From the NCBI GenBank assembly GCA_903789595.1, contig CAIFEZ010000003.1:108937-172936 (forward strand): a DNA stretch of 64,000 nt, given 5' to 3'. Source of the stretch: an uncultured eubacterium 1-6. Lineage in GTDB: Bacteria; Bacillota; Clostridia; Lachnospirales; Lachnospiraceae. The position numbers were made by a program, and so were the translations under genes. Below are positions 1-54,823 of this stretch, in pieces; position 1 is the stretch's first letter; each line of letters opens with the position of its first letter. The notes beneath the pieces are model-generated. The model was given only the letters and a program-made list of their open reading frames with translations, searched no databases and had not been told where the DNA came from.

Positions 1-2587
1 AACGGCGCAGAATTCACTGGATAATATTCTTCAGCACAAGGAAGAGTTCGAGAAGCTTGCAGAGGATCTCAGAAAGCTGAATGAGGAGAAGGAAATTCTG
101 CAGCGCATTGAAGAGCAGTATCTGCGCGTGCTGAGACTCGATGCGGAGGCTGTCAGAAGGATTCTCGCACAGAAAAAATTCCTGTACATGAGGCAGAAGC
201 GGACCGATGACGGCGAGGAAACGAATATCAGCGATATCAGGGGACGTATACGCGCGCTGGAGAAACAGGAGAAAAAGGCACAGAAGCTTTTTGAGGAAGC
301 GGATGAGGAATTTATCCGGGCATCAACGGCAGTGCACGAAGGCCAGCGTCCGATAGAAGAACTGAAGGATAAGCTCCGAAGAGAGGAAGAGAGCCGGGAT
401 GCGATGGAGGATTCCATACGCGCTCTCCGGGCGCTGAAGAAGAGGGTGCAGGACCTTTTTGATCATCAGGATGATATCACGGTTTCGGATGAAATCCGTG
501 AAACGATCGGCCGCGCGGGAGAAGTGACTGCGGACGAGGCTGAGATCGTCCGCGCCTTGCAGGAACTGGAGCACAAGCGGGAGCTTCTGCACCGCAATTT
601 TCAGCAGAAGAAAGAGGAGACCGGCTATGCGCTGCGCGACCTGCGGCGCGAGCTCGCGAGACTGAACGGCGAGATCCGTACGCTGCAGCAGAACAAAAAG
701 GTTCTGCCGGACGGCATGGAAGAGGAACTCGCTGTGCTGAAACGGGAGGCAGACCGCGCCGGTATTCACACAGAGATCCGTTTTGTGTGCGATCTTGTCA
801 ACGAGATCGATCCGAAATGGCAGATGGCGGCGGAAACGTTTCTCGGCGGCCGCCGGTTCAATGTGATAGCGGACCCTCAGGCGGTACCCGGGCTTCTGCG
901 CATCGTGGATGAGAAGAATCTTTACAGGATCTATCTCGTACTGACGAATAAGATGGACGATATTCCGGCGAAGGCACCTGAGGGTTCTCTTGCCGCGCGT
1001 TTCACGATCGCAAATATCTATGCCAGGAAGTACATCAATTATACCTGCGGGAATCTCAAGTGCGTGGAGACACGGCAGGAGCTGAATGACAATCCGAAGG
1101 GCGCGATCACTCCGGGCGGCATGCTGGCCAGAGGCATTGTCGGCAGCAAGATGAAGCCGGTGAGAGATCTTGTATTCGGAAAAGATGCCATCCTGCAGCT
1201 TTTGGAGAAAAAGCGGAAAGAGCGGGATGAGAAGCAGAAGAAGGAGGCTTCGCTCGAGGAGCAGTCAGGACGCTTCGCACAGCTTGCCGAGCAGGCTTAT
1301 GAGGCGACCTTTGCGCCGGAGAATTTTGATACCACCGCGCCAAAGATGGTGGTAAAGCTTCGTGAAGAAATCGCGGAAACAGAGCGAAATATCAAGGCAC
1401 TGCAGAACAACCCGTCCGCAAAGCGTCTGATGGACATGTATGCGGCAGCTTCTGAGAGACGCGAACAGGCACAGAAGCGTCTGACGGATATTCAGGGAGA
1501 ACAGAAGTCCGAAGCCAGGTCTGTACAGGAGGCGGAGGAAAGACTGCAGGCGGGACGGCGCACCGAGCAGTCGCTGCGTGATGATTATGAGACGGAGGCA
1601 GCCCTTCACCCGGAAGAGAAAAAAGCGGCGGATGAGCTTTATGAAAAGCAGAAGAACAATGCGGAGGCAAGCCTTCAGAGAGCCATTCAGGAAGTGAACC
1701 GGCAGCTGTCAGAAGCGACAAACAGCATGCTGGAGGCGATGTTCCGGTACAATGCGAGCCATGCGGGTTATGTGGCGGACAAGAAAGGCGCAAAGAAATA
1801 TATAGACCGTCTGGATGAGCTCCGGACAAAGGATATCGAGGAGACAAAGAACAGGATCGAAGCGAAGGCTCACACCATTTCCGATACATTCATGCGGGAT
1901 TTTGTAGAGGTCATTTACTCCAGAATCCGAAGCATGCGGGACCAGAAGGATGCAATCAATGATATGCTGAAGGCGCACAGGTTCGGCGACAAGAATTACT
2001 CGCTGATCATGAAGGCCCGAAACAGCGCGGACATGAAGGCGTTTTTCACAATCGCGCAGAAAATAGATGAAATCGGATCGGCGGACAGTCTTGAGGTTTA
2101 CCTGAACATGAACAGCAACTTCATGCAGGAGCAGGGAATCGCCGAGGCCTTCGAGATCTTCCGGGATACCGTCCTGAACGCGGAAGATGTGACAGAATAC
2201 ACAGATTACAGGAACTATTATACCTATGATTTCTTTATCAGCGACGGTCATCACACAGCGTATCTGTCAAAATCCCAGGGAATTTATTCGGGCGGAGGAA
2301 AACAGACGCCGTATTTTATTCTGCTGATCGCGGCGCTGATGACCAGCTACCGCACGGATGCCTGCTGCCTCAGAATCGCGTTTATCGACGAGGCGTTCGC
2401 GGCTATGGATGAGGACAGAATACGAAGCATGATCGATTACTTCCAGGACAACGGACTGCAGGTGATTTACGCGGCGCCGGACAAGACGATGCACAATATC
2501 GCGCCCTATGTGGACACCACGGTGACGGTTGTCAAGAAAGACAGAAAGGCGGATGTCATCGATATGCAGACGGGGGTTGAGGAATGA
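1..2587 (+). CDS. jetC: SMC-like ABC ATPase, JetC/MksF-like (Wadjet); 5' end lies outside the window
   Basis: The frame is open from base 2, and the ORF track starts at an internal Met at 128. More than 600 aa is E/K/R/L-rich coiled coil. The C-terminal ABC head has the signature-like YSGGGKQ and the Walker B/D-loop IAFIDEAFAAMDEDR. The stop overlaps the next gene by 4 bp (ATGA). Confidence 0.55.
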   Translation, partial: TAQNSLDNILQHKEEFEKLAEDLRKLNEEKEILQRIEEQYLRVLRLDAEAVRRILAQKKFLYMRQKRTDDGEETNISDIRGRIRALEKQEKKAQKLFEEADEEFIRASTAVHEGQRPIEELKDKLRREEESRDAMEDSIRALRALKKRVQDLFDHQDDITVSDEIRETIGRAGEVTADEAEIVRALQELEHKRELLHRNFQQKKEETGYALRDLRRELARLNGEIRTLQQNKKVLPDGMEEELAVLKREADRAGIHTEIRFVCDLVNEIDPKWQMAAETFLGGRRFNVIADPQAVPGLLRIVDEKNLYRIYLVLTNKMDDIPAKAPEGSLAARFTIANIYARKYINYTCGNLKCVETRQELNDNPKGAITPGGMLARGIVGSKMKPVRDLVFGKDAILQLLEKKRKERDEKQKKEASLEEQSGRFAQLAEQAYEATFAPENFDTTAPKMVVKLREEIAETERNIKALQNNPSAKRLMDMYAAASERREQAQKRLTDIQGEQKSEARSVQEAEERLQAGRRTEQSLRDDYETEAALHPEEKKAADELYEKQKNNAEASLQRAIQEVNRQLSEATNSMLEAMFRYNASHAGYVADKKGAKKYIDRLDELRTKDIEETKNRIEAKAHTISDTFMRDFVEVIYSRIRSMRDQKDAINDMLKAHRFGDKNYSLIMKARNSADMKAFFTIAQKIDEIGSADSLEVYLNMNSNFMQEQGIAEAFEIFRDTVLNAEDVTEYTDYRNYYTYDFFISDGHHTAYLSKSQGIYSGGGKQTPYFILLIAALMTSYRTDACCLRIAFIDEAFAAMDEDRIRSMIDYFQDNGLQVIYAAPDKTMHNIAPYVDTTVTVVKKDRKADVIDMQTGVEE

Positions 2588-3834
2588 AAACGGTTCATCG
2601 GCTGACGGATCCCTGGCAGAGAAAGCTGGTGGACAGGATACTTGACGCATATGAGCGTACGGGGACCTACCGCGGCGATACAAAGCGGAATCAGAATATC
2701 CGTGTCCCGGTGGAGGAGATTTTTCCGGCGTACGACAGGGATGATGCGGATCTGGAAAAACTGAGAATGTTTGAGGCTTCCATGATGGCGCTTGAGAAGA
2801 TCTCGCCGGTAAGAATCGTCTACAGAGACAAAAGAATCCGAAGTGAATTTCGTGAATTTACAGTGCCTGCGGGCTCGGTCGAGCCCGCACTCTATACGCT
2901 TGCGGACAGAAAACCGAAAAGAGATATCCATGCCGCGCAGATCGCCCTGTACGAAAAATACCGCGGGAGGAATTCCGTGCTGGATGCCTTTATCGGGGAG
3001 CAGGAGGAGCTGCTTCGCTCGGACAAAAATGCCTGGTTTCTGCCGGAAGCCGCGGAGGACGTGCTGCGGACGGTGGATTTCATTGTCGGGAATTCGGGCA
3101 ATATCCTTTATCGTGAAATCTCCATCTCACTGTTCGGAGATTCGAAATATCTCGAAAAGCGGGGAATCTTGTCTAAGGCCCTTCGTGTGCTGAAAAAATA
3201 CGGCGAATATGATTTCGTGGAAGCTGATTTTGACGCGAGGAAGGAATACGAGGATGCCGTGCTGGCGGAGTATTCGGTCTATGAAAACCCGACTTACGTG
3301 AACTTTAACGGGAACGGGGAGATAGTTTTTCAGAACGGAACAAGACTGGATCTGAAGTCAGGGGTCCCGGTTGCGGTGCGGTCGGACCGCCTGGCCGACA
3401 TCGTGAAAATCAGGGTTTTCGCGGATACGGTTCTGACGATTGAAAATCTGACATCCTATAACCGTCTTCAGACAGATGCCTTCCAGCTGTATCTGGCGGG
3501 GTATCATAACCATGCGCGTCAGGAATTTCTGGTGCGTATTCACAAGCAGAATCCGGACATCCGCAGGTGGCTTCATTTCGGCGATATTGATCCGGACGGC
3601 TTCTGCATCCTTGAAAATCTGCGCAGCCGGACCGGAATCAATTTTCAGAGCTATTGCATGGATCTGAGCTGGCTGAAGAAATATCGGGCTTACACAAAGA
3701 AGCTGAATGGAAATGACAGAGTTAAGGCGAGGAATCTGATTCAGGAAGGAAAGCATGTGGAGATCCTCGGATATATGCTGGAGCAGGATGAGAAGCTGGA
3801 GCAGGAGATTATCAGCTGGAAGGAAAGCACGTGA
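2584..3834 (+). CDS. jetD: JetD/MksG-like Toprim-domain subunit (DUF3322 + DUF2220-type architecture)
   Basis: 416 aa. The N-terminal half has REISISLFGDSKYLEK (the FGDSK motif typical of JetD). The C-terminal half has TIENLTSYN ... HFGDIDPDGFCILENLR ... YCMDLSWL, a Toprim-like E ... DxD pattern. It is translationally coupled to the SMC-like ATPase. Confidence 0.6.
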   Translation: MKTVHRLTDPWQRKLVDRILDAYERTGTYRGDTKRNQNIRVPVEEIFPAYDRDDADLEKLRMFEASMMALEKISPVRIVYRDKRIRSEFREFTVPAGSVEPALYTLADRKPKRDIHAAQIALYEKYRGRNSVLDAFIGEQEELLRSDKNAWFLPEAAEDVLRTVDFIVGNSGNILYREISISLFGDSKYLEKRGILSKALRVLKKYGEYDFVEADFDARKEYEDAVLAEYSVYENPTYVNFNGNGEIVFQNGTRLDLKSGVPVAVRSDRLADIVKIRVFADTVLTIENLTSYNRLQTDAFQLYLAGYHNHARQEFLVRIHKQNPDIRRWLHFGDIDPDGFCILENLRSRTGINFQSYCMDLSWLKKYRAYTKKLNGNDRVKARNLIQEGKHVEILGYMLEQDEKLEQEIISWKEST

Positions 3835-4344: not shown

Positions 4345-4379
4345 CGGATTCAGAAAAATGAACAGGGAGCTTTTCAGTG

Positions 4380-4620
4380 CATTCCGGTGTTCTGCGGTGC
4401 CGAAAGGAAGGCCGCGGGATATCTGTATGAGAATAGAGAATCAGGTGAAAGTCCTGAGCGATCCGGTCACTGTGAGCAGCGAATCATTCCGAGATGTCAT
4501 TGTGTGCTTGGTGCATGAGAAGACAGGAAATGGTGCTTGAGCTGTCAGCCAGGAGAACTGCTGAAAGGTTTGGAAAGATGCTTCCGAAGAAAGCAGATTC
4601 TGATGGCTGAAATGTTTTTT
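4380..4620 (+). promoter_or_regulatory. Cobalamin (B12) riboswitch: aptamer plus putative expression platform
   Basis: Conserved core aatagagaatcaGGTGAAAGTCCtgagc ... ccggtCACTGTgagc, and a B12-box-like GTCAGCCAGGAGAACTGC at about 4544-4561. The downstream segment tggctga (4596-4602) is complementary to tcagcca of the B12 box and is followed by a T-run at about 4615-4620. A FecB/BtuF-type ABC importer lies downstream. Confidence 0.75.
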
Positions 4621-4848: not shown

Positions 4849-4902
4849 TTCTGAGATCCCTGAGAGATGGAAAGATCAGAACATGATTTGAGGGGGATTG
4901 AA

Positions 4903-6261
4903 ATGAAAAAGAAAAGATACCGCAGAGTATTGGCGGGAATTGCCGCGGCTGCACTTCTGGCTGCCGGCTGCGGTCAGGCTGGTTCCGGAGCGGCGTCGGC
5001 GTCTTCGACGTCTTCGGGTTCTCTGATGGTCAGCTCGTCCGGAGAGGCTGGGAATGGAGCGCCTTCGTCTGTGGAAGCTGTGACTGAAGACACTTCGGCT
5101 GGAGAGGCCGTGCATGAGAATTCCTCGTCCGAGGGGACTGTGGACGGGGATTCTTCGGGCAGTGCGGACGCGGAAACCCTGCTGGAGGAGGGAATCCTCA
5201 GCAGTCAGCCGGAGGATGCGCCTGCCGTCGACGGTCTGACTTATGTCGGTACGATGAATCTGCGCTATGCGAAGTGCTTTCAGGTATATTACTATGAGGG
5301 CGGCTGGCGGCTGCTTTCCATCCCCGACGGAGATTCGTTTCTCGTGGCACCGGATGGGCAGGAAGCTCCGAAGGGACTGTCTGACGCGTACACGGTGATA
5401 CACAGACCGTCTGCCATTTACCTTGCGGCGACCTCGGCGTATGCGCTGTTTGATGCCCTTGGTGCGGAGAATGCGGTCACCCTGTCCGGAACAGACAAAA
5501 GCGGGTGGACGATCGATGCGCCGAAAGAGGCGCTGGAGAATGGGACGATGACCTTTGCCGGCAAGTATAACGAGCCGGATTATGAACTTCTGGTGGACAA
5601 GGGCTGTGATCTGGCGATTGAATCGACGATGATCCTTCATTCTCCGGAGGTGAAGGAAATGATCGAGGATCTGGATATCCCGGTTCTGACTGATCGTTCC
5701 AGCTATGAGACGGAGGCTCTCGGAAGAACAGAGTGGATCAAGCTGTACGGCGCACTGATGGGGAAGGAAGAGGAAGCGTTTTCTTTCTTTAATGAGCAGG
5801 CGAAGGTTCTCGATGATCTTTCCGGAGAGAAGAGCACGGGAAAGACCGCGGTGTTTTTTGCGGTGGATACGGACGGCTCCATCGTGGTGCGCGCCGGGAA
5901 TGATTATATCTCGAATATGATCGACGAGGGCGGAGCAAAGTATATCTATGACGATTTGAAGAATACAGGAACGGCGGCGACTGTGACGCTGTCAATGGAG
6001 CAGTTCTACAAGGACGCCTCGGATGCGGATTATCTGATTTACAACGCGACCATTGAGCAGTCGCTCGGCAGTATTGACGACCTGGTGGCGAAGAATGATC
6101 TGTTTGGCGATTTTCGGGCGGTGAAGGACGGAAACGTCTTCCAGGTTGACCGGAAGATGTATCAGTCCACCGATAAGGTCGCTCAGTTCATCCGTGATGT
6201 GAATCTGATGGTGACGGGCGGCGATGAGAAGGAGATGACATTTCTGTCCAGACTGTCCTGA
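4903..6261 (+). CDS. btuF: Lipoprotein; FecB/BtuF-type ABC substrate-binding protein (corrinoid uptake inferred from the riboswitch)
   Basis: Start at ATG 4903 after the RBS gaggggga. The signal peptide plus lipobox is LLAAGC, followed by an S/A/G-rich linker of about 100 aa and then a Peripla_BP_2-like body (RPSAIYLAATSAYALFDALGA..., TEWIKLYGALMGKEEEA). Confidence 0.65.
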   Translation: MKKKRYRRVLAGIAAAALLAAGCGQAGSGAASASSTSSGSLMVSSSGEAGNGAPSSVEAVTEDTSAGEAVHENSSSEGTVDGDSSGSADAETLLEEGILSSQPEDAPAVDGLTYVGTMNLRYAKCFQVYYYEGGWRLLSIPDGDSFLVAPDGQEAPKGLSDAYTVIHRPSAIYLAATSAYALFDALGAENAVTLSGTDKSGWTIDAPKEALENGTMTFAGKYNEPDYELLVDKGCDLAIESTMILHSPEVKEMIEDLDIPVLTDRSSYETEALGRTEWIKLYGALMGKEEEAFSFFNEQAKVLDDLSGEKSTGKTAVFFAVDTDGSIVVRAGNDYISNMIDEGGAKYIYDDLKNTGTAATVTLSMEQFYKDASDADYLIYNATIEQSLGSIDDLVAKNDLFGDFRAVKDGNVFQVDRKMYQSTDKVAQFIRDVNLMVTGGDEKEMTFLSRLS

Positions 6262-24092: not shown

Positions 24093-25838
24093 ATGAGCAG
24101 AGAGTCAGACGACGACCGGGAGTACAGGCGGTCCGGAAGAGAGACAGACGACGGCCGGGAGTACAGGCGGTCCGGAAGAGGGACGGATGACGGCCGGGAG
24201 TACAGGCGGTCCGCGGGAGGACAGAAGGACGAACAGAGACACAGAGGGTCGGGGAAGCGGAGAAAAAGAAAGAACCGTAAGAAGACAGCTCTCAAGCTCA
24301 TGATCCTGATTATCGCTGTACTTGCAGCTGTTGCGATCATTTTTTTCCTGTTCCTGGAGGGAACGCTGAACAGCATCAAGAGAGTCGATACAGCAAACGA
24401 GGCATATGTCTCAAGGAGTGATGAGACCTTTGAGGTGGATTCCAGCGCAGGAAGCGACACAATGAATGCAAGTGATGTCAATTTCAACGGCAGCAATGTT
24501 GACATTATGGCCAGCGATGACGTGAAGAACATTCTGCTGATCGGCCAGGACAAGCGTGCGGATCAGAATACTCGCACCCGTTCCGATACGATGATCATCG
24601 CGTCGATCAATACGAATACCAATAAGATTACGATGGTATCGCTGATGCGCGACATGTATGTACCGATTCCCGGATATTCGGCAAACCGGATCAACGCCGC
24701 GTATGTGTTCGGCGGAATGAGCCTTCTGGATCAGGTGATCGAGGATGACTTTGGAATTACGATCGACGGCAACGTTGTCGTGGATTTTGACGGCTTCCTT
24801 GAGACGATGACGAAGATCGGAAACCTCGATATTGAACTGACCGAGGACGAGGCGAATTATATGAATGCCAATGAGGGACTCGGTTCAGCTGAGGACGACG
24901 CTTCTGTGACAGAGGCGTGGGGGCTTACCGCGGGCGTGAATTCGCTGACGCCGGAGCAGGCGCTTACCTACAGCCGTATGAGATATGTCGGCAATTCCGA
25001 CTGGGATCGGACGGAAAGGCAGAGAAAGCTTCTGACCGCCGTGTTCAAAAACGCACAGAAGTCGAGTGTTACCAAGATTCTCAGCATGGTCAGCGATCTG
25101 ATCCCGTATTTCGAGACGGACCTCAGCAATAAGGAGATCCTGAAGTATGTCAAGACAGTGTTCAGCGGAAATCTGGAGCTGAATTCCAAGAGCTACCGGA
25201 TACCGGTAGACGGCGGCTACACCTCCCAGACCATCAGCGGAATGTCTGTATTGGTTCCTGACCTTGAGATCAACAGCGCATATCTTCAGCATTACCTGTA
25301 TAATAAGAAGCTCAGCGAATCTCTGAAGGAAGCTGCCAAAAAGGCAGCCGCTTCCGCAAGCTCGGATACGGGAACATCCGCAGACAGCAGCGGTTCCTAT
25401 GACAGCACGGATAATGGCAGCACTTATTCGTACAGCACGGACAGCGGGAACACGTATTCCGGCGGATACGACAATTCTCAGAACTCGTATTACGAAGATG
25501 AGAACGGATCCGGAGGAACGGAAACTTATGGCCAGGGCGATTATGGCGGAGGCACGGCAGGAGGCTCCGGCACAGAGAGCTACAATGGAAATGGAGACGC
25601 GGGAGGCGGTACGGGAACAAATTCCGGAACGGCCAATACCGGAGCAGATCCGGGAACCGCGGATCCGGGGACAGGAACCGGAGGATCGGAAAATTCCGGC
25701 GCTGCGGACAACGGCGGAGGGGGAACCGGCGGTTCGGGAACCACGGATAACGGCGGGGCAGGAACCGGCGGCGCAGAAACCGGCGGCTCAGGCCCGGGAG
25801 AAGGAAGCACCACAGGAGCTGACGGAACTGCGGCGTAA
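24093..25838 (+). CDS. LytR-CpsA-Psr (LCP) family cell-envelope phosphotransferase with repeat and low-complexity extensions
   Basis: TM anchor ALKLMILIIAVLAAVAIIFFLFL and LCP core ILLIGQDKR...TRSDTMIIASIN...SLMRDMYVPIPGY..NRINAAY. The N-terminus has a 13-aa repeat. The C-terminus is a G/T/S-rich tail of about 170 aa. Confidence 0.85.
   Translation: MSRESDDDREYRRSGRETDDGREYRRSGRGTDDGREYRRSAGGQKDEQRHRGSGKRRKRKNRKKTALKLMILIIAVLAAVAIIFFLFLEGTLNSIKRVDTANEAYVSRSDETFEVDSSAGSDTMNASDVNFNGSNVDIMASDDVKNILLIGQDKRADQNTRTRSDTMIIASINTNTNKITMVSLMRDMYVPIPGYSANRINAAYVFGGMSLLDQVIEDDFGITIDGNVVVDFDGFLETMTKIGNLDIELTEDEANYMNANEGLGSAEDDASVTEAWGLTAGVNSLTPEQALTYSRMRYVGNSDWDRTERQRKLLTAVFKNAQKSSVTKILSMVSDLIPYFETDLSNKEILKYVKTVFSGNLELNSKSYRIPVDGGYTSQTISGMSVLVPDLEINSAYLQHYLYNKKLSESLKEAAKKAAASASSDTGTSADSSGSYDSTDNGSTYSYSTDSGNTYSGGYDNSQNSYYEDENGSGGTETYGQGDYGGGTAGGSGTESYNGNGDAGGGTGTNSGTANTGADPGTADPGTGTGGSENSGAADNGGGGTGGSGTTDNGGAGTGGAETGGSGPGEGSTTGADGTAA
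24108..24221 (+). repeat. In-frame 39-bp tandem repeat x3 (DDxREYRRSGRxT) at the LCP N-terminus
   Basis: The protein reads DDDREYRRSGRET / DDGREYRRSGRGT / DDGREYRRSAGGQ, and the DNA units are near-identical. Confidence 0.9.
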
Positions 25839-26909: not shown

Positions 26910-27039
26910 ATTCTGTTCACCTCTTACATCTATACAAAGGACATTTCCCTGAGACAGAAACATCGAAGTATTCGTCATTCTGACTTCAGAATGTCTCCGG
27001 GTTTATCAAAACTTTCCGAGAAGACCCCAGCCAAATGTT

Positions 27040-27495
27040 TCATTTGGCCGGGGATGAATCGGCTGTTTTTGCACGCTTGTTGTAATGCCGTTTTGGGCGG
27101 CCCTGCTCTTCCACATATCTTTTCAATACGTCCAAAGTAACACCTCCTGAGGTTGCGATAAAATAACTGTCACTCCAGAACGAATCCTTCCACAGATACT
27201 TGCGGATCGTTTCTCCGTAATCACGGCGGAGTATTCTTGCCGAAACACCCTTCAGCACATTGACGATTTCCTTGATAGAGTATTTTGTCCCAAGGGATAC
27301 CAGGATGTGGACGTGATCCACATCTGTCTCCATCTGCAGAATTTTCCCCTCGTAATGCTCCAATATCCTTGTACACTCCCGTTTGCATGCTTCGGCGACT
27401 TCCCCGGTAAGGCATGGTTTCCGATACTTTACAACGAGGACGATATGGTATTCCAAAGCATAAACAGCGTGAGGACCATGTGTGTATTCTGTCAT
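27040..27495 (-). CDS. tnpA: IS200/IS605-family Y1 (HUH) transposase TnpA
   Basis: 151 aa with YHIVLVVKYRKPCL, the HUH motif DHVHILVS and the catalytic-Tyr region WSDSYFIATSGG. Confidence 0.9.
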   Translation of the reverse strand: MTEYTHGPHAVYALEYHIVLVVKYRKPCLTGEVAEACKRECTRILEHYEGKILQMETDVDHVHILVSLGTKYSIKEIVNVLKGVSARILRRDYGETIRKYLWKDSFWSDSYFIATSGGVTLDVLKRYVEEQGRPKRHYNKRAKTADSSPAK

Positions 27496-27541
27496 GTCCT
27501 GTCCCCTCTAAAATAATCACCACCAATGTGTTATAAATCAC

Positions 27542-27569
27542 TTGTACAATAGCATATATACGATATAAT
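27542..27569 (+). promoter_or_regulatory. Promoter for the tnpB-like gene
   Basis: TTGTAC (27542-27547), a 16-nt spacer, then TATAAT (27564-27569). The RBS ggagg lies at 27594-27598. Confidence 0.5.
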
Positions 27570-27607
27570 GTAAATATACACCAAATGTATTTCGGAGGCT
27601 TTTTTGC

Positions 27608-29290
27608 ATGAAAAAAACGCTGCTTTCGCGGCATATCCTGTTTGCTTCCTTAAGCCAGAAGGAAGTGGATACAATCAGGAATGATATCGCCCTGTTCAAC
27701 CAAATCAAACGCACGGTCACCAGAAGGAAGTCCGTATCGTGCGCTTCAGAGAAAGAAGCGGAGAAGACAGCGGACAAGCCTGACCTCCGCAGAAAGGAAA
27801 ATGCGGAGCTCCGGAAAAAACAACCGAAATCGGTGCACCTGCAGCTGAAGGAAGCATTCGGCACAGAAGACCATTTCACAAACAGTGCGCTCCGCTCTGC
27901 CAACGCCGCGATCCGGTCTGTCAAGGAACTGAAACAGATGAACCTTGACAGGGCCGAGTCAGACGTCGATGACATCACAGCCAAGATTAAGGACAAAAAG
28001 AAAAGGCTGAAAGCGCTCAACAATATGCAGGCATCCCTCGTCAAACGTTCGAAAGCCAAAAAGGCCGGCCGCCGTATTCCTGCCCCGTGTTCCAACCCGA
28101 TTGAGGTTTACAGGGACGGAAAGTGGTATATCACTTATTTCGGGAAAACCGTATCCGTTTATGAAAACGACTATCTTTTTGAGATCCGTTATCTCCGTCC
28201 GAAGATCAGGCAGCTGTCCGGAGCCATCAAGGCCCTTGTTTTGTGCAAAAACCGTCTGGAGCACAAGATCTCCCTGATGAAGGAGGACAAGGACGCTCAT
28301 ATCTGTTACGGAAGGAAAGACTTTTTCCGAAAACAGTCTACCGTATATGAAAACCAGCATGATGTATGGCTGTCCGGTTTTAGGAAACGCAGGAATAAAG
28401 CTCTTACGATTTCCGGGAGACAGGACGCGGACGGCGGGAACTTCCTCTTCCATTACGACCCGTTGTCACATACACTCTCTTACCGGTCACAGACTGGAAA
28501 AAGAACCATCGCGATTCCAAACGTTGTTTTTCCTTACGGACAGCCGGATGTTGACCACGCCGTAACAGTAAAGAAGCCGGAACGGAATGCGGTCACGTGG
28601 AGCATTGAGATCCACGGCCAGTCCTTCATCGTCAAATGCATGATAGAAGCTGTTTCGAATAAACGCATCAATGACGATTACAGCAACGGGTGTGTCGGGG
28701 TTGATTCCAACTACGACTGTCTCGCTGTAACAGAGACAGACGGAAGCGGCAACCTTCTGCGGCACCTGGTCATTCCCATTGATGTAACAGGAAAGTCCGG
28801 AAGCAACGAACAGTCCGTATCTAAGGCGCTGGACCAGGTTTTTGCCATATGCAGGGAGTCACACAAACCCTTCGCGATGGAGAGCCTGTCAATGAAATCC
28901 AAACCGCACCTGTATGGAGGAAAGAAACAGAACCGCCATATCAGCCTTTTCTCCGCGGATACTATTACCTGGCTTGCCGAAGGCAAGGCACTTCGTAATG
29001 GAGTGGCGTGCGCCTTTGTAAACCCGGCGTATACTTCACAGATTGGTAAGATGAAGTATATGCGGAGGTTTGGCCTCACCATCCACGAAGCCGCCTCCTT
29101 TGTAATAGCAAGAAGGGCGATGGGCATCCGTACAGAACGGCTGCCCGCGTGGATGCGGAGAGACCCTGTGGTGCAGAAAAAGAGGACTGCGAAAAACGCC
29201 GGCCGCAACGCATGGCGGGACGCATACACGCTGACGAAGAAGATCACTCCGGCGGAACGGATGCAGGGCCCACGCCCGTCATTTGCGTAA
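27608..29290 (+). CDS. Atypical TnpB-related protein (RuvC-like, no zinc ribbon, expanded N-terminal/REC region)
   Basis: 560 aa. RuvC-I is CVGVDSN (D366), RuvC-II is FAMESL (E425), followed by VNPAYTSQ. Only 17 aa then separate YTSQ from TIHEAASFVIARRA (E494 where canonical TnpB has D in DxNAAxNI). The protein contains no CxxC pair. Residues from about 40 to 160 are K/E/R-rich. Confidence 0.7.
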   Translation: MKKTLLSRHILFASLSQKEVDTIRNDIALFNQIKRTVTRRKSVSCASEKEAEKTADKPDLRRKENAELRKKQPKSVHLQLKEAFGTEDHFTNSALRSANAAIRSVKELKQMNLDRAESDVDDITAKIKDKKKRLKALNNMQASLVKRSKAKKAGRRIPAPCSNPIEVYRDGKWYITYFGKTVSVYENDYLFEIRYLRPKIRQLSGAIKALVLCKNRLEHKISLMKEDKDAHICYGRKDFFRKQSTVYENQHDVWLSGFRKRRNKALTISGRQDADGGNFLFHYDPLSHTLSYRSQTGKRTIAIPNVVFPYGQPDVDHAVTVKKPERNAVTWSIEIHGQSFIVKCMIEAVSNKRINDDYSNGCVGVDSNYDCLAVTETDGSGNLLRHLVIPIDVTGKSGSNEQSVSKALDQVFAICRESHKPFAMESLSMKSKPHLYGGKKQNRHISLFSADTITWLAEGKALRNGVACAFVNPAYTSQIGKMKYMRRFGLTIHEAASFVIARRAMGIRTERLPAWMRRDPVVQKKRTAKNAGRNAWRDAYTLTKKITPAERMQGPRPSFA

Positions 29291-29650
29291 CTGTTCCGGA
29301 AGGGGTATCAGGCAGTTTTTCATCTGTAAGCAAAGAAACGATTTGTTACTCGCAAACATCAGTATTCATGCCGTCAGGCAACATGCTTTTTCCTGTGGAC
29401 GAGGATCACGAAGCAGGGGACTGTGTGACGCAGTGTCTGGCGGCATCCGACAAAGATATGCACATGGATCCGCGTCACGCGGACGGGAAGCAATACCGGG
29501 CCCTGATCCGCGCTGAGAATCTCACGACATATCTTTCAGGTATTTCCGTCATGGTGATTAACGGAAACCGGCCCGCTGAGGTTCAGCGGCGGGCTCAAAA
29601 GAGGCCCCTTTCAAATCCCTTCGGGGATTTGGGAGTGGGAGCTTCACTTT
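29291..29650 (+). ncRNA. Candidate omega-RNA/reRNA scaffold and right-end region of the IS
   Basis: About 360 nt is non-coding and GC-rich, with consecutive stem-loops. These are tttccgt/acggaaa (29543-29567), ccgctga/tcagcgg (about 29571-29590) and aaatccc-ttcg-gggattt (29613-29630, a UUCG tetraloop). The composition turns AT-rich after about 29660. Confidence 0.4.
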
Positions 29651-29794
29651 AGTCAAATGAAAGAAATTAGGTCCTGCGATTCGTCGAAGAAGACTGATAT
29701 TTTTTGGACAATTTTCCGTAATAAAACTATTATATCACTGTCTTTCCGGAATATCTCGACAGATCGCAGGCGGTGATTATACGATCATGCATCG

Positions 29795-42759: not shown

Positions 42760-44397
42760 TCATTTCTGCTTTGTGGCGAAGTGCCGGATCACGACGAAGA
42801 GCACGATGGCGCCTGCGGCGGAATATCCGAGGAAACCGAGCAGAGGCATTCCGAATATCTTCGGATGCATATCCGTGAGACAGAGAATGCTGGATGAGAT
42901 CAGAAGCGCGACCACCCACATGCCGATGACGATGTTCTGAACGAGCTTCCGGAGCAGCCAGGCGAGATTTTTCGAGGTCTTCAGCTCCAGGTTGACCCGG
43001 CTTTGGCCGTTCAGGTATTCCTTCATGATGCGGCTCATCAGGGAGGGAAGCTTCGCGGAGTCTCTGGCGGCGTGGAGAAGGTCCTGCCCGCTGTGACTGA
43101 GCGCATCCTTCCAGTCAAAGCTTTCCATGTAAGAGGAGCGGATTCGCTGAGCGGCGATTTCCGCCATATTGATGTCCGGACTGATCTCTGCCAGATCGCC
43201 CTCCATATGGGTCAGCCCTCTTGCCAGCATGGTGAGACCGTGCGGCATCGTGATCTTGTTCTTCTTCATGGCGTCCATGACGTCCATGAAGAAATCCGCA
43301 ATGTCAATTCCGGCGATATCTGTGTCGCCGTAGCGCTGAAGAATATCGCGCAGATCCTGGTAGAGCTGCTCTCTGTCGGGCTTTCCCTTTCGGAAGTCGG
43401 CCAGGGAAAGCACCGCGTTCTCCACACGGGAGACATCGTGATCGGCGATTCCCCTGACCGCCTCGGTCAGGAGATTCCGGTCTTTTTCGGTGAGGCGGCC
43501 CATCATTCCCATGTCGATCCAGATGATTTTTCCGTCTCGTATCCGCAGATTTCCCGGGTGCGGATCCGCGTGGAAGAATCCGTCGTCAATGACCTGTTTG
43601 ATGAAGTTGTCGACCAGCTTTGCCCCGATTTCGTGAAGATCATAGCCGTTTTTCTGAAGGGATTTCGTATCCGTAATAGAAAAGCCGTCGATGTATTCCA
43701 TGACGAGAACCTGTGAGGTCGTGTACTGACGGTAGAGAGTCGGAACGCCGACGAACGCGATGTCTCTGTTGCAGCGGGCGAATTCTTCCATGTTGTCCGC
43801 TTCCTTCAGAAAATTCATTTCCTCCTGCGCGACCGACCACAGCTCGTCAAGGACCTGGCTTAAATCCACAACGTTCTTCAGGCCGCCGATAGAAGGCAGG
43901 AGTCTCACTGCACGGTGGAGGAGCCGGATATCCCGTGACATGGTGTCGTAGATGCCCTTGCGCTGCACCTTGACGATGACGTCCTCCCCGCTTTTCAGAC
44001 GCGCGCGATGTACCTGCGCGATGGAGGCGGAGCCGAGAGAGACGGGATCGATGATCTCAAAGATCTCCGACCATTTTTCCCCGTAGGAGCTCTCGATGAC
44101 GGAGATGACGTCGGAGAAAGGCATGGGCGTCACCTCGGAATTGAGCTTCATCAGCTCCGTGCAGTATTCCTTCGGCAGAATATCGGAGTGAAGCGACATG
44201 ATCTGTCCGAGCTTGATATAGGTGGGGCCCAGTTCCTCGATGACGATCCGGAGCTTTTCCGGGGTGACGCCGCGAAAGACCTTGTTCTCGAATAGAATCT
44301 GTGTGATTTCTTTCAGACGAGAGGAGCTGTCCGGTTTATTTTTTGACATTGCCGAAATGGAAGGATTGTTATTAGCGTTTTCTTCTGCATGATTCAT
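42760..44397 (-). CDS. ABC1/UbiB-family atypical kinase
   Basis: LGPTYIKLGQIMSLHSDILP, ASIAQVHRARL, VIVKVQRKGI, HADPHPGNL and IWIDMGMMG, plus a C-terminal TM pair. The start is uncertain: ATG 44397 is chosen, and ATG 44439 (inside Rep-B) is the alternative. Confidence 0.75.
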   Translation of the reverse strand: MNHAEENANNNPSISAMSKNKPDSSSRLKEITQILFENKVFRGVTPEKLRIVIEELGPTYIKLGQIMSLHSDILPKEYCTELMKLNSEVTPMPFSDVISVIESSYGEKWSEIFEIIDPVSLGSASIAQVHRARLKSGEDVIVKVQRKGIYDTMSRDIRLLHRAVRLLPSIGGLKNVVDLSQVLDELWSVAQEEMNFLKEADNMEEFARCNRDIAFVGVPTLYRQYTTSQVLVMEYIDGFSITDTKSLQKNGYDLHEIGAKLVDNFIKQVIDDGFFHADPHPGNLRIRDGKIIWIDMGMMGRLTEKDRNLLTEAVRGIADHDVSRVENAVLSLADFRKGKPDREQLYQDLRDILQRYGDTDIAGIDIADFFMDVMDAMKKNKITMPHGLTMLARGLTHMEGDLAEISPDINMAEIAAQRIRSSYMESFDWKDALSHSGQDLLHAARDSAKLPSLMSRIMKEYLNGQSRVNLELKTSKNLAWLLRKLVQNIVIGMWVVALLISSSILCLTDMHPKIFGMPLLGFLGYSAAGAIVLFVVIRHFATKQK

Positions 44398-44427
44398 GGG
44401 CAAATTCTCGCATTCTGTGTATGGATA

Positions 44428-44688
44428 CTGTATAAGCATAAAGTCTCTTACGCGCGCTACGCGACAGGCGACCTTTCTGCGTTTTCGAAGAGCTGTTAAT
44501 GCATGGCTACTGTATAAGCTACGGATTGCTCCGTGCTGCGCACTACCGCAATCCTACAAGTATGAGCACTTACGTGCCGCTTACGCGTCACTTCGTGCTC
44601 ATACTTGTTGCCTTCGAAATCGCATAAAGTCTCTTACGCGCGCTACGCGTGCGACGAGCCTTTCTGCGTTTTCGAAGAGCTTATACAG
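44428..44688. repeat. Rep-B element, copy 1 (MITE-like; 10-bp perfect TIR)
   Basis: The TIR is ctgtataagc(44428-44437)/gcttatacag(44679-44688). There are internal direct repeats of about 59 bp (44436-44494 and 44622-44681). A 14-bp perfect inverted repeat acaagtatgagcac(44556-44569)/gtgctcatacttgt(44595-44608) is also present. Confidence 0.75.
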
Positions 44689-53453: not shown

Positions 53454-54506
53454 TTATATTTCCGTGTTATCAGAGTGCTGATCCTCAGAGGTCACGGAAG
53501 AATTAATCGCGGCAGTTGCTGCCGCCGCTTCCCGGCCGCCCCGGCCGGTTTCGTCCGTGATGCAGGGATCCTTCGGAGCAGCCGGCTTCGGTTTGGCGTT
53601 CCGGTTGACAGGTGTCGCATCACCGATTCCCAGCGCCTCGCCGGCTACGCCGAGAGAGGAAATGACATTCGCGATATCAGAAGGCATGTAGATCTTGGTG
53701 GCTCTTCCATCGGAGACATCCTTGAGAGCCTCGATCCCCTTCAGCTTCAGGACGCTTTCGCTGATGCCTGCCCTGTTCAGATCGCTGATACCTGCCGCTT
53801 CCGCCTCATAGACAAGCTTGATGGATTTGGCGCGTCCTTCGGCCAGAGCGATCTGCGCGTCGCGTTCCGCCTCGGCGGCCAGGATTTTCGCTTTCTTGTC
53901 GCCTTCTGCCCGGCTTACAACGGCTTCCTGATGCGCCTGTGCCTCGAGAACGGTCTGACGGCGTTCGCGCTCCGCACGCATCTGCTTGGTCATGACCTCT
54001 TCGATCTCTTTCGGGGGCTGGATATTCTTGATCTCCACGCGGGTGACCTTGATGCCCCAGGGATCGGTCGCCTCGTCGAGAATCGCCTGCATTTTTCCGT
54101 TGATCGTCTCGCGGGAGGTGAGGGTCTGATCCAGTTCCATATCGCCGATGATGTTCCGCAGCGTCGTGGCGGAAAGATTCTGGAGACCGGCGATCGGGTT
54201 TTCAATTCCGTAGGTATAGAGCTTCGGATCAAACACATAACAGAAAACGACAGAATCGATCATCATGGTGACGTTGTCCTTGGTGATGACCGGCTGTGGC
54301 GGGAAATCCAGGACCTGTTCCTTCAGGGAAACCTTTTTTGCAATTTTCTCCACGACCGGCATCTTCAGATGAAGACCCGCGTTCCAGATTGTCTTGAACT
54401 TTCCGAGGTGTTCGATGACGTATGCTTCCGCCTGCGGAACAATTCGGATATTCGCCGCAATAAGCCAGATGATGAGGACTGCCAGAATAATCCAGATAAT
54501 AAACAT
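53454..54506 (-). CDS. SPFH/band-7 (stomatin/prohibitin-like) membrane protein
   Basis: Start at ATG 54506 (RBS aaaggag). The TM anchor is MFIIWIILAVLIIWLIAA, followed by the SPFH core (IRIVPQAEAYVIEHLGKF ... WGIKVTRVEIKNIQPP) and an A/E-rich coiled coil. Confidence 0.85.
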   Translation of the reverse strand: MFIIWIILAVLIIWLIAANIRIVPQAEAYVIEHLGKFKTIWNAGLHLKMPVVEKIAKKVSLKEQVLDFPPQPVITKDNVTMMIDSVVFCYVFDPKLYTYGIENPIAGLQNLSATTLRNIIGDMELDQTLTSRETINGKMQAILDEATDPWGIKVTRVEIKNIQPPKEIEEVMTKQMRAERERRQTVLEAQAHQEAVVSRAEGDKKAKILAAEAERDAQIALAEGRAKSIKLVYEAEAAGISDLNRAGISESVLKLKGIEALKDVSDGRATKIYMPSDIANVISSLGVAGEALGIGDATPVNRNAKPKPAAPKDPCITDETGRGGREAAAATAAINSSVTSEDQHSDNTEI

Positions 54507-54525
54507 GAGAATACTCCTTTCCCAA

Positions 54526-54823
54526 ATACCTGTTGTCGTCGCAAAGCCATAGCCGGCCTTGCACACCCTTCGGGTGTGCGCCCGTCTCTGTCATGCGACT
54601 GGACTTATACAATAAACGGTTAACGATACATAGTGCTACAAACTGTATAAGTCTCCGCGTCACTTCGCTGCTTTGCAGCTTCCGTGCCGCTAACAGGTAT
54701 TCGCATTTCCGCGGTGTTCCACACCGCTTCATGCTCATACCTGTTGTCGTCGCAAAGCCATAGCCGGCCTTGCACGCCCTTCGGGTGTGCGCCCGTCTCT
54801 GTCATGCGACTGGACTTATACAG
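54526..54823. repeat. Rep-B element, copy 2 (11-bp TIR element plus an 86-bp direct duplication)
   Basis: The 86-bp direct repeats 54526-54611 and 54737-54822 differ at 1 nt. The TIR is ctgtataagtc(54643-54653)/gacttatacag(54813-54823). Each 86-mer contains the hairpin gcacaccc-ttcg-gggtgtgc. Confidence 0.8.

Follow-up and report, generated by a model that had tools for sequence, protein, structure and literature searches.

A zinc-ribbon-less TnpB-related protein with a putative Asp-Glu-His RuvC site, encoded by an intact IS200/IS605-family element of an uncultured Lachnospiraceae bacterium

TnpB proteins have been divided into five major clades, one of which, RIIIr-4, is described as large, carries an Asp-to-His change at RuvC-III and has no C4 zinc finger (Altae-Tran et al., 2023, PNAS; PMC10691335). 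The authors of that census argued that the conserved rearrangement implies catalytic activity, and found that the clade occurs in viruses (PMC10691335). Here, we report on a gene located at positions 27608 to 29290 (plus strand) of a 64,000-nucleotide stretch of DNA, hereafter the window, from an uncultured Lachnospiraceae bacterium (GCA_903789595.1, contig CAIFEZ010000003.1, positions 108,937 to 172,936 of the forward strand). This open reading frame (ORF) is the accessory protein gene of an autonomous element of the IS200/IS605 family that measures about 2.64 kb (roughly 27007 to 29647) and seems to be an unusually complete specimen of a catalogued clade, not a new type of system. Its product, with His at RuvC-III and no C4 zinc finger, appears to match RIIIr-4 by these two described traits (a trait match, not a placement in a tree), and seven of its relatives lie on viral contigs. 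The census highlights archaeal members linked to ribbon-helix-helix (RHH)/MazE genes, whereas the window copy and its close relatives are linked to Y1 TnpA, and those of Bacillaceae occur by themselves in short elements with multiple copies. An initial reading made from the letters of the DNA (the sequence-only reading) had implied a novel lineage, which does not hold, since a clade with both traits was already described as RIIIr-4 (PMC10691335) and "IS200/IS605 family accessory protein TnpB-related protein" is the name that NCBI gives to several of the more distant relatives. That reading had further held that a well-characterized family with a known mechanism would undo the novelty; the clade is indeed catalogued, but no experimental study of RIIIr-4-type TnpBs was found in our full-text literature searches.

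Among canonical systems, IS608 has the target TTAC and the right-end terminus TCAA, and ISDra2 has the target TTGAT. The window element resembles both in its Y1 TnpA, its imperfect subterminal hairpins, the conserved penta- or tetranucleotide at its left end (TTTAT, as against TTGAT and TTAC), the terminal TCAA/TCAC of the right end and a structured 3' tail that ends there, and its protein shares RuvC-I, RuvC-II, PxxTSQ and the overall fold with the canonical TnpBs. On the other side, the window protein is longer (560 versus about 400 aa), has no zinc ribbon, carries His and not Asp at RuvC-III and falls below the Pfam and NCBIfam thresholds for TnpB; in the window element, tnpA is divergent and the conserved tail comes after the stop codon, whereas that of the canonical elements overlaps the ORF. 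Cas12m2 (type V-M) and Cas12k are likewise compact Cas12 proteins with a coiled-coil recognition (REC) region, the former having His in its triad and the latter showing no cleavage, and both are among the best structural matches of the window protein. However, both are CRISPR-associated and no CRISPR array is present here; moreover, Cas12m2 keeps a zinc finger (HCCC) and has His at RuvC-I and Asp at RuvC-II, whereas RuvC-I and RuvC-II of the window protein are canonical. TldRs are immobile, have no conserved catalytic residues and are located beside fliC or oppF (see also PMC10691335). They are TnpB derivatives without the C-terminal RuvC-III/zinc-finger region, the region in which the window protein, too, differs from canonical TnpB. 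The window family differs from them in being mobile, multi-copy, transposase-linked and variably flanked and in its invariant Asp-Glu-His triad, so that catalytic loss, immobility and a fixed host-gene neighbor, the hallmarks of TldRs, were not found.

The ORF begins with ATG and is intact, and its 560-aa product contains RuvC-I (GVD366SN), RuvC-II (AME425SL), NPAYTSQ (residues 472-478) and TIHE494AAS (residues 491-497). The sequence-only reading had delimited the gene and all these motifs correctly, and was also right that no CxxC pair exists: none of the nine Cys residues belongs to a CxxC, CxxH or HxxC pair across the 560 aa. Its spacing of 17 residues between YTSQ and TIHE was an overestimate, as T491 follows Q478 after 12 residues and H493 after 14. 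The profile searches it had recommended showed that the curated hidden Markov model thresholds for TnpB are not reached; the Pfam scan gave no hit at all in the protein, neither OrfB_IS605 nor OrfB_Zn_ribbon included, and the NCBIfam scan gave only sub-threshold TnpB matches at residues 405-498 (guided_TnpB, 30.6 bits against a cut-off of 100; TIGR01766, 22.2 against 32). The guided_TnpB match, whose register was calibrated using truncated ISDra2 sequences, was dropped as a guide to RuvC-III, for it ends in the zinc-finger positions 349-362 of the profile, before RuvC-III (379). A sequence search of the PDB yielded a sole match, the stretch from RuvC-II to TSQ of Cas12j19/Cas12X (E=8e-4).

To assign the RuvC-III residue, we relied on an alignment of 253 family members covering the C-terminal domain. 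The results showed that Asp366 is kept in 253 of the 253 relatives and both Glu425 and His493 in 252, whereas Glu494 is kept in merely 149, the others having mostly Gln (40), Ile (17), Val (11), Thr (9), Met (6) or Gly (5). The family motif at this site reads S-I-H-E/Q-A-A-x-x-x-I-A-R-R, with His in the column where the DRDxN/NADxN motif has Asp. The family profile was then aligned by hhalign with a canonical profile made of ISDra2 TnpB, whose reference sequence was checked against PDB 8BF8/8EXA, and five canonical TnpBs from viral contigs. D366, E425 and TSQ fell on D191, E278 and SSQ of ISDra2 TnpB, and on the RuvC-III side H493, E494, A496 and I500 fell on D361, E362, A364 and I368 in the same register. 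The alignment with ISDra2 alone had covered 35 columns with RuvC-III outside them, and it was the five added canonical TnpBs that resolved the register. The small size of the canonical profile kept the overall hhalign probability low, but the register is in line with the pattern of conservation, in which His493 is near-invariant and Glu494 variable. As an independent check of the register, the relatives on Thermus thermophilus plasmids, which have the same ribbon-less scaffold, read ...SLSKDVAAAYVIGRRA and carry Asp in the His493 column, and a Pseudomonas relative reads ...SVHQAAGLVIARRG at RuvC-III. Because the profile register, the conservation pattern and the Thermus Asp coincide, the RuvC triad is, as judged from these alignments, Asp366-Glu425-His493. 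The placement of RuvC-III at Glu494, which had led the sequence-only reading to a DEE site, was therefore one residue out of register.

Two plasmid-borne relatives deserve description in their own right. The Thermus protein (L103, 1781-3289; plasmid pAA2-2b) has 502 aa and is a distant ribbon-less relative with Asp at the His493 column. The protein from the Pseudomonas sp. FeN3W plasmid (L104, region 1501-3772), likewise distant and ribbon-less, has 549 aa and an Asp-Glu-His site, and is encoded directly downstream of an IS607-family serine transposase gene. The RuvC part of the family is also carried by four Thermus phages.

A word-seeded search retrieved 149 relatives, the closest of which are 83-91% identical and 559-560 aa long, and an exhaustive profile search retrieved 3,631 clusters at 50% identity with E<=1e-3 (1,082 with E<=1e-30). 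Members adjoin Y1 transposases or an IS607 serine transposase, and multiple copies were found in Bacillus yapensis, Halolactibacillus miurensis and Ectobacillus funiculus. The linker from TSQ to the His is 14 residues long in 253 of 253 relatives and contains a zinc ribbon in none of them, so that re-alignment uncovered no hidden ribbon; the close homologs span 559-563 aa and are thus not longer proteins from which this copy has lost a segment. These comparisons indicate that the absence of the zinc ribbon is a trait of the family and not a deletion in this copy. The ratio of nonsynonymous to synonymous substitution rates (dN/dS) among paralogous copies is 0.12-0.17, indicating purifying selection, and in B. 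yapensis all eight of eight copies (567 aa) are intact. Together with the confident fold described below, the same-length homologs and the dN/dS values bear out the earlier view of a divergent TnpB lineage whose gene is not decayed.

An AlphaFold model of the protein, built with a 49-sequence alignment, reached a predicted local distance difference test (pLDDT) score of 88.4 and a predicted template-modeling (pTM) score of 0.72. In this model, an N-terminal strand (residues 2-6) is followed by long helices (17-52 and 88-152) with a low-confidence charged linker between them, beta hairpins (166-185), further helices (188-262), a beta-rich region (265-347) and an RNase H-like core from residue 363; a short helix (476-488) occupies the place of the canonical zinc ribbon, and a helix that starts at His493 spans residues 492-504. 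Foldseek against the PDB returned, in order, Cas12g, Cas12k, Cas12f, CasX, Cas12m2, Deinococcus radiodurans RuvC, ISFba1 TnpB and Fanzor2, with E values from 3e-7 to 4e-4 and modest TM-scores of 0.2-0.5, as expected for flexible bilobed proteins. The model thus predicts a TnpB/Cas12-like, bilobed protein with wedge (WED), REC and RuvC parts, whose helical REC-like region is larger than in TnpBs of about 400 aa, in support of the enlarged REC-like region that the sequence-only reading had proposed. The charged helical insertion that had been described at about residues 40-160 is recognizable in composition (K/R/D/E make up 40% of residues 41-160) and in the modeled helices, but it is a family-wide trait and not an insertion in this copy; nor can the extra 150 aa or so be placed there alone, as the helical block at 188-262 is also present.

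The extent of the element was revealed by nine loci encoding proteins 84-91% identical to the window protein, which share similarity with it from 27002 to 29647-29648 across no fewer than five unrelated contexts. The left boundary reads TTTAT/CAAAAC...CGAGAAGA (the slash marks the boundary), and the left end (27007..27056, plus strand) contains, 18 nt from TTTAT, an imperfect hairpin CCCCAGCCAAATG-TTT-CATTTGGCCGGGG (27025-27053, plus strand) with 12 of 13 pairs and one A.C mismatch, and overlaps the tnpA stop codon. The right end reads ...GGGAGTGGGAGCTTCAC/ and has a subterminal imperfect hairpin as well (29601-29645); the two ends are not inverted repeats of each other. The pentanucleotide TTTAT abuts the left end (27002..27006, plus strand); of 14 independent insertions that otherwise have nothing in common upstream, 13 carry it at the left boundary and one carries CTTAT. 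Considering this conservation and the analogy with IS608 and ISDra2, TTTAT is likely the target site of TnpA and hence likely the target-adjacent motif (TAM).

Divergently from the tnpB-like ORF, and adjoining it as the sequence-only reading had recognized, lies an intact tnpA (27040..27495, minus strand) encoding an IS200-type Y1 (HUH) transposase of 151 aa (Pfam Y1_Tnp, E=1.2e-38; transpos_IS200, 133.8 bits with a cut-off of 55). The same layout, with a spacer of 111-112 bp, occurs in loci L001-L009. In the window, the 112-bp spacer (27496..27607) forms a divergent promoter region. On the plus strand, the tnpB-like promoter (TTGTAC, 16 nt, TATAAT; 27542-27569) has a perfect −10 element (27564-27569) and a −35 element with 3 of 6 matches, and the ribosome-binding site (RBS) GGAGG (27594-27598) precedes the ATG by 9 nt; on the minus strand, a consensus scan called the tnpA promoter (TTTACA, 17 nt, TG-TATTGT). 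The good promoter and RBS reported earlier are therefore valid as regards the RBS and the −10 element, but the −35 element stays below the criterion of the scan, which made no call for the tnpB-like gene.

The Bacillaceae elements, whose proteins are about 32% identical to that of the window, measure about 1.96 kb, are multi-copy and have no tnpA within 3 kb. Their left end reads TTTAT/CAAC...CGAGAAGAC plus a hairpin, an arrangement shared with the window element but with another stem sequence, and their right end reads ...GGTGGGGGTAGTTCAA/. Since elements more than 84% identical occupy at least five contexts, genomes carry multiple copies and transposases are neighbors, we conclude that the window element is intact and recently mobile. 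Among the Bacillaceae relatives L012-L088, those of B. yapensis, H. miurensis and E. funiculus are elements of about 1.96-2.2 kb without tnpA, which occur in roughly 8-12 or more copies per genome, are 90-96% identical and have intact ORFs; they represent a currently expanding non-autonomous family, whose mobilizing transposase was not found within 3 kb.

The flanks of individual insertions were also compared. A shared insertion site of the window and L001, both with a LytR gene to the left, was rejected: the LytR genes are 49% identical and in opposite orientation, and the DUF3786 neighbor is absent in L001. L001/L002 and L003/L004 encode an identical TnpB-like protein (P0001) and have the same left flank with different right flanks (e.g., L001 from 6028 and L003 from 3990), and the right end of L001/L002 abuts prophage-like genes (AcrVA2-like, RusA). 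An insertion or rearrangement has taken place in L001-L004 precisely where the right end meets its flank, which is the site that the predicted guide would designate.

Downstream of the stop codon, a non-coding right-end tail of 357 nt (29291..29647, plus strand) is conserved up to 29647, where conservation stops sharply in five independent contexts. Comparison of the window with L005 showed 91-92% identity at 29402-29601, against an ORF average of about 84% (with a synonymous divergence, dS, of 0.57) and 72% in the last 100 nt of the ORF, which are the least conserved part of the element. From about 29360 to 29647 (plus strand), conservation in the tail exceeds that of the ORF; this part is a candidate guide-RNA (omega-RNA) scaffold, and its final 105 nt or so are homologous to nearly the whole tail of the Bacillaceae elements. 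Three plus-strand hairpins were recognized in it: P0 (29543..29567; TTTCCGT/ACGGAAA, loop CATGGTGATTA), whose loop bases GTGA (29554-29557) are complementary to the terminal TCAC; P1 (29570..29594; GGCCCGCTG...CAGCGGCGGGC), the length of which varies between lineages; and the right-end hairpin P2 (29601..29647), which includes a nested stem-loop AAATCCC-TTCG-GGGATTT, has covarying outer and inner stems and closes with TCAC (29644-29647) at the right-end boundary. This terminal tetranucleotide is TCAC in Lachnospiraceae-type elements and TCAA in Bacillaceae.

In a 23-sequence alignment of the tail module, 87.1% of cells are paired versus 75.1% in shuffles, and the covariation score is 0.293 versus 0.132 (reached in 0 of 500 shuffles), with slid controls at or below 0.134; changes on both sides of a pair were seen in 8 of 8 cases in P0 and 5 of 7 in inner P2. 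The P0 loop is complementary to the element terminus in four lineages of differing sequence, namely UUGAAC with GUUCAA in Bacillaceae, GUGACUU with AGGUCAC in L011, GUGGUCC with GGAUCAC in L028 and GUGA with UCAC in the window, and the Bacillaceae loop variants UUGAAU and UUGAGC stay G.U-compatible with the terminus. This pairing resembles the guide-adjacent pseudoknot of TnpB and Cas12f RNAs, and the structured module of about 105 nt, whose 3' limit coincides with the right end as expected of a guide-RNA scaffold, is a candidate for one. By analogy with TnpB omega-RNAs, whose guides begin where right-end conservation drops, the predicted guide segment starts at 29648 and comprises the flank directly 3' of the right end (TTTAGTCAAATGAAAGAAAT; 29648..29667, plus strand).

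The Rfam scan of the tail gave no matching family, and an IStron or group I intron as the cause of its length was rejected for want of an Rfam hit; a CRISPR-DR17 match (29608-29632; 23 bits versus 42) is merely the inner hairpin of P2. The small ORFs called in the tail were taken as spurious: conservation there is far above that of synonymous sites of the main ORF, and one of them runs out of the element. At about 29485-29520 (columns 207-218 of alignment A3), the window and L005 differ from L001 and L003 by a 12-nt indel (GGAAGCAATACC) together with clustered substitutions, in a tail that otherwise hardly varies; this region probably forms a variable loop in the putative RNA.

We propose that the protein acts as a homing nuclease guided by RNA, which would cut with an Asp-Glu-His site, take TTTAT as its TAM and use a guide from 29648. 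This account takes the observed element architecture and infers the chemistry, and we put its chances slightly above even. TnpA would excise and insert the single-stranded element via the hairpins of the two ends, 3' of TTTAT, and the tnpB-like mRNA would read through the 357-nt tail, of which P0, P1 and P2, ending ...TCAC, would be kept as a guide-RNA scaffold, with the flanking 16-20 nt or so from 29648 as guide. The protein-RNA complex would then recognize TTTAT plus a match to the guide, a combination expected solely at the empty donor joint left by excision (predicted to read ...GGGTTTAT/TTTAGTCAAATG...), and the Asp366-Glu425-His493 site would cut this joint, after which the element would be restored by recombination with a sister copy (homing or retention, as for canonical TnpB). 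The enlarged helical REC-like region would probably take over contacts with the heteroduplex, and the short helix 476-488 may stand in for the zinc ribbon. The TnpB/Cas12 identity is suggested by the confident model, the Cas12/TnpB fold matches and the profile alignment of D366, E425 and H493 with D191, E278 and D361. Constraint on the active site is suggested by the near-invariance of the triad, the Thermus Asp at the His column, the low dN/dS and the intact B. yapensis copies, and a guide-RNA-like tail by its sharp boundary, its conservation above that of the ORF, the covariation and the P0-loop complementarity.

Several observations weigh against this account. The His in the RuvC triad of Cas12m2 abolished the second Mg2+ and the cleavage of double-stranded DNA (PMC10442227), the closest mechanistic precedent for such a His, by which cleavage by the Asp-Glu-His site is not to be assumed. 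TTTAT was designated as target and TAM from flank conservation and the IS608/ISDra2 analogy, and the search of metagenome contigs gave no empty site. The P0-loop/terminus pairing of the window is just 4 bp long, was equalled in 538 of 1000 shuffles and is not significant by itself, and it competes with an extended P2 stem (GAGGC/GCUUC). Covariation alone is no proof of RNA either, as P2 and the left-end hairpins are needed by TnpA as single-stranded DNA. The main rival, which we regard as rather unlikely, is that the protein binds DNA under RNA guidance without double-strand cleavage; its site would hold one metal ion and the displaced strand or would only process RNA, and the complex would serve as a roadblock or target marker, for instance in directing or regulating TnpA transposition, or as a nickase. 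This would fit the His-Asp-Asp triad of Cas12m2 with its single Mg2+ and no cleavage of double-stranded DNA (PMC10442227), the presence of the binding-only effector Cas12k and of Cas12m among the best fold matches, and the dispensability of Glu494 beside His493. However, Cas12m2 is altered in both RuvC-I and RuvC-II, which are canonical and invariant here, and the family remains on mobile elements beside transposases, unlike exapted dead TnpBs. In addition, His belongs to the working RuvC sites of T. thermophilus RuvC and of Cas9. The census authors, too, judged the clade active (PMC10691335).

That the protein is not guided by RNA at all seems to us improbable. On this view it would be a structure-specific nuclease of the RuvC type, or an accessory factor, that joins TnpA in acting on the folded single-stranded ends, and the tail would be purely a DNA-level transposition signal. 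The missing zinc ribbon, or target-nucleic-acid-binding (TNB) domain, the sub-threshold scores on every TnpB model and the RuvC resolvases among the fold matches (TM-score 0.53-0.59, target-normalized) are compatible with it, as covarying hairpins are with single-stranded DNA; yet the full-length fold matches are Cas12/TnpB proteins with WED and REC lobes, beyond the RuvC core. For IS608-type TnpA, about 50-60 nt suffice at each end, but the conserved part of the tail measures about 290 nt here, and the G.U-compatible changes between P0 loop and terminus (TTGAAT and TTGAGC versus GTTCAA) fit RNA better than DNA. That the gene is a decaying TnpB pseudogene from which the zinc ribbon was deleted, a view to which the missing domain and the sub-threshold scores lend support and nothing further does, can be considered already refuted by the equal length of the homologs, the 14-residue spacing in 253 of 253 relatives, the low dN/dS and the 3,631 clusters of the family, and the confident model also speaks against it. 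Returning to the guided nuclease, its ribbon-less Asp-Glu-His site might work unlike that of canonical TnpB, e.g., by one-metal or His-assisted chemistry resulting in nicking, another cut pattern or binding only, together with a compact right-end RNA module of about 105 nt in which the loop of a hairpin would pair with the nucleotides immediately preceding the guide; this extension is tentative, and we doubt it more than we believe it. If true, it would define a distinct class of transposon-borne RNA-guided effectors with a Cas12-like enlarged REC lobe.

Ribbon-less TnpBs with His at RuvC-III form thousands of clusters and are multiplying in Bacillaceae and gut Lachnospiraceae, and we found no biochemical study of them. 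In the window copy, an intact TnpA and defined ends go together with TTTAT as candidate TAM and with a candidate scaffold whose boundary to the guide would lie at 29647/29648. Whether its Asp-Glu-His site cuts DNA would show to what extent RNA-guided cleavage can do without the RuvC/TNB module, and the answer would mark the branch as a source of compact editors or of natural DNA binders.

Other features were recorded in the window. Two copies of the Clostridiales-1 RNA motif (RF01699; 44514-44684 and 54647-54819, both minus strand; 93 and 80 bits with a gathering score of 48) each lie just upstream of a minus-strand gene, encoding an ABC1 atypical kinase (42760-44439) and an SPFH/Band 7 protein (53454-54566), respectively. 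We know of no function for this RNA; because the two copies precede unrelated genes, their position suggests a cis-regulatory leader. A cobalamin riboswitch (RF00174, 74 bits) at 4378-4579 (plus strand) is located upstream of an ORF at 4867-6261. To the left of the element, a LytR_cpsA_psr protein (24093-25838, plus strand) carries three N-terminal DDxREYRRSGR motifs and a long low-complexity C-terminal tail rich in Gly, Thr, Ser and Asn.

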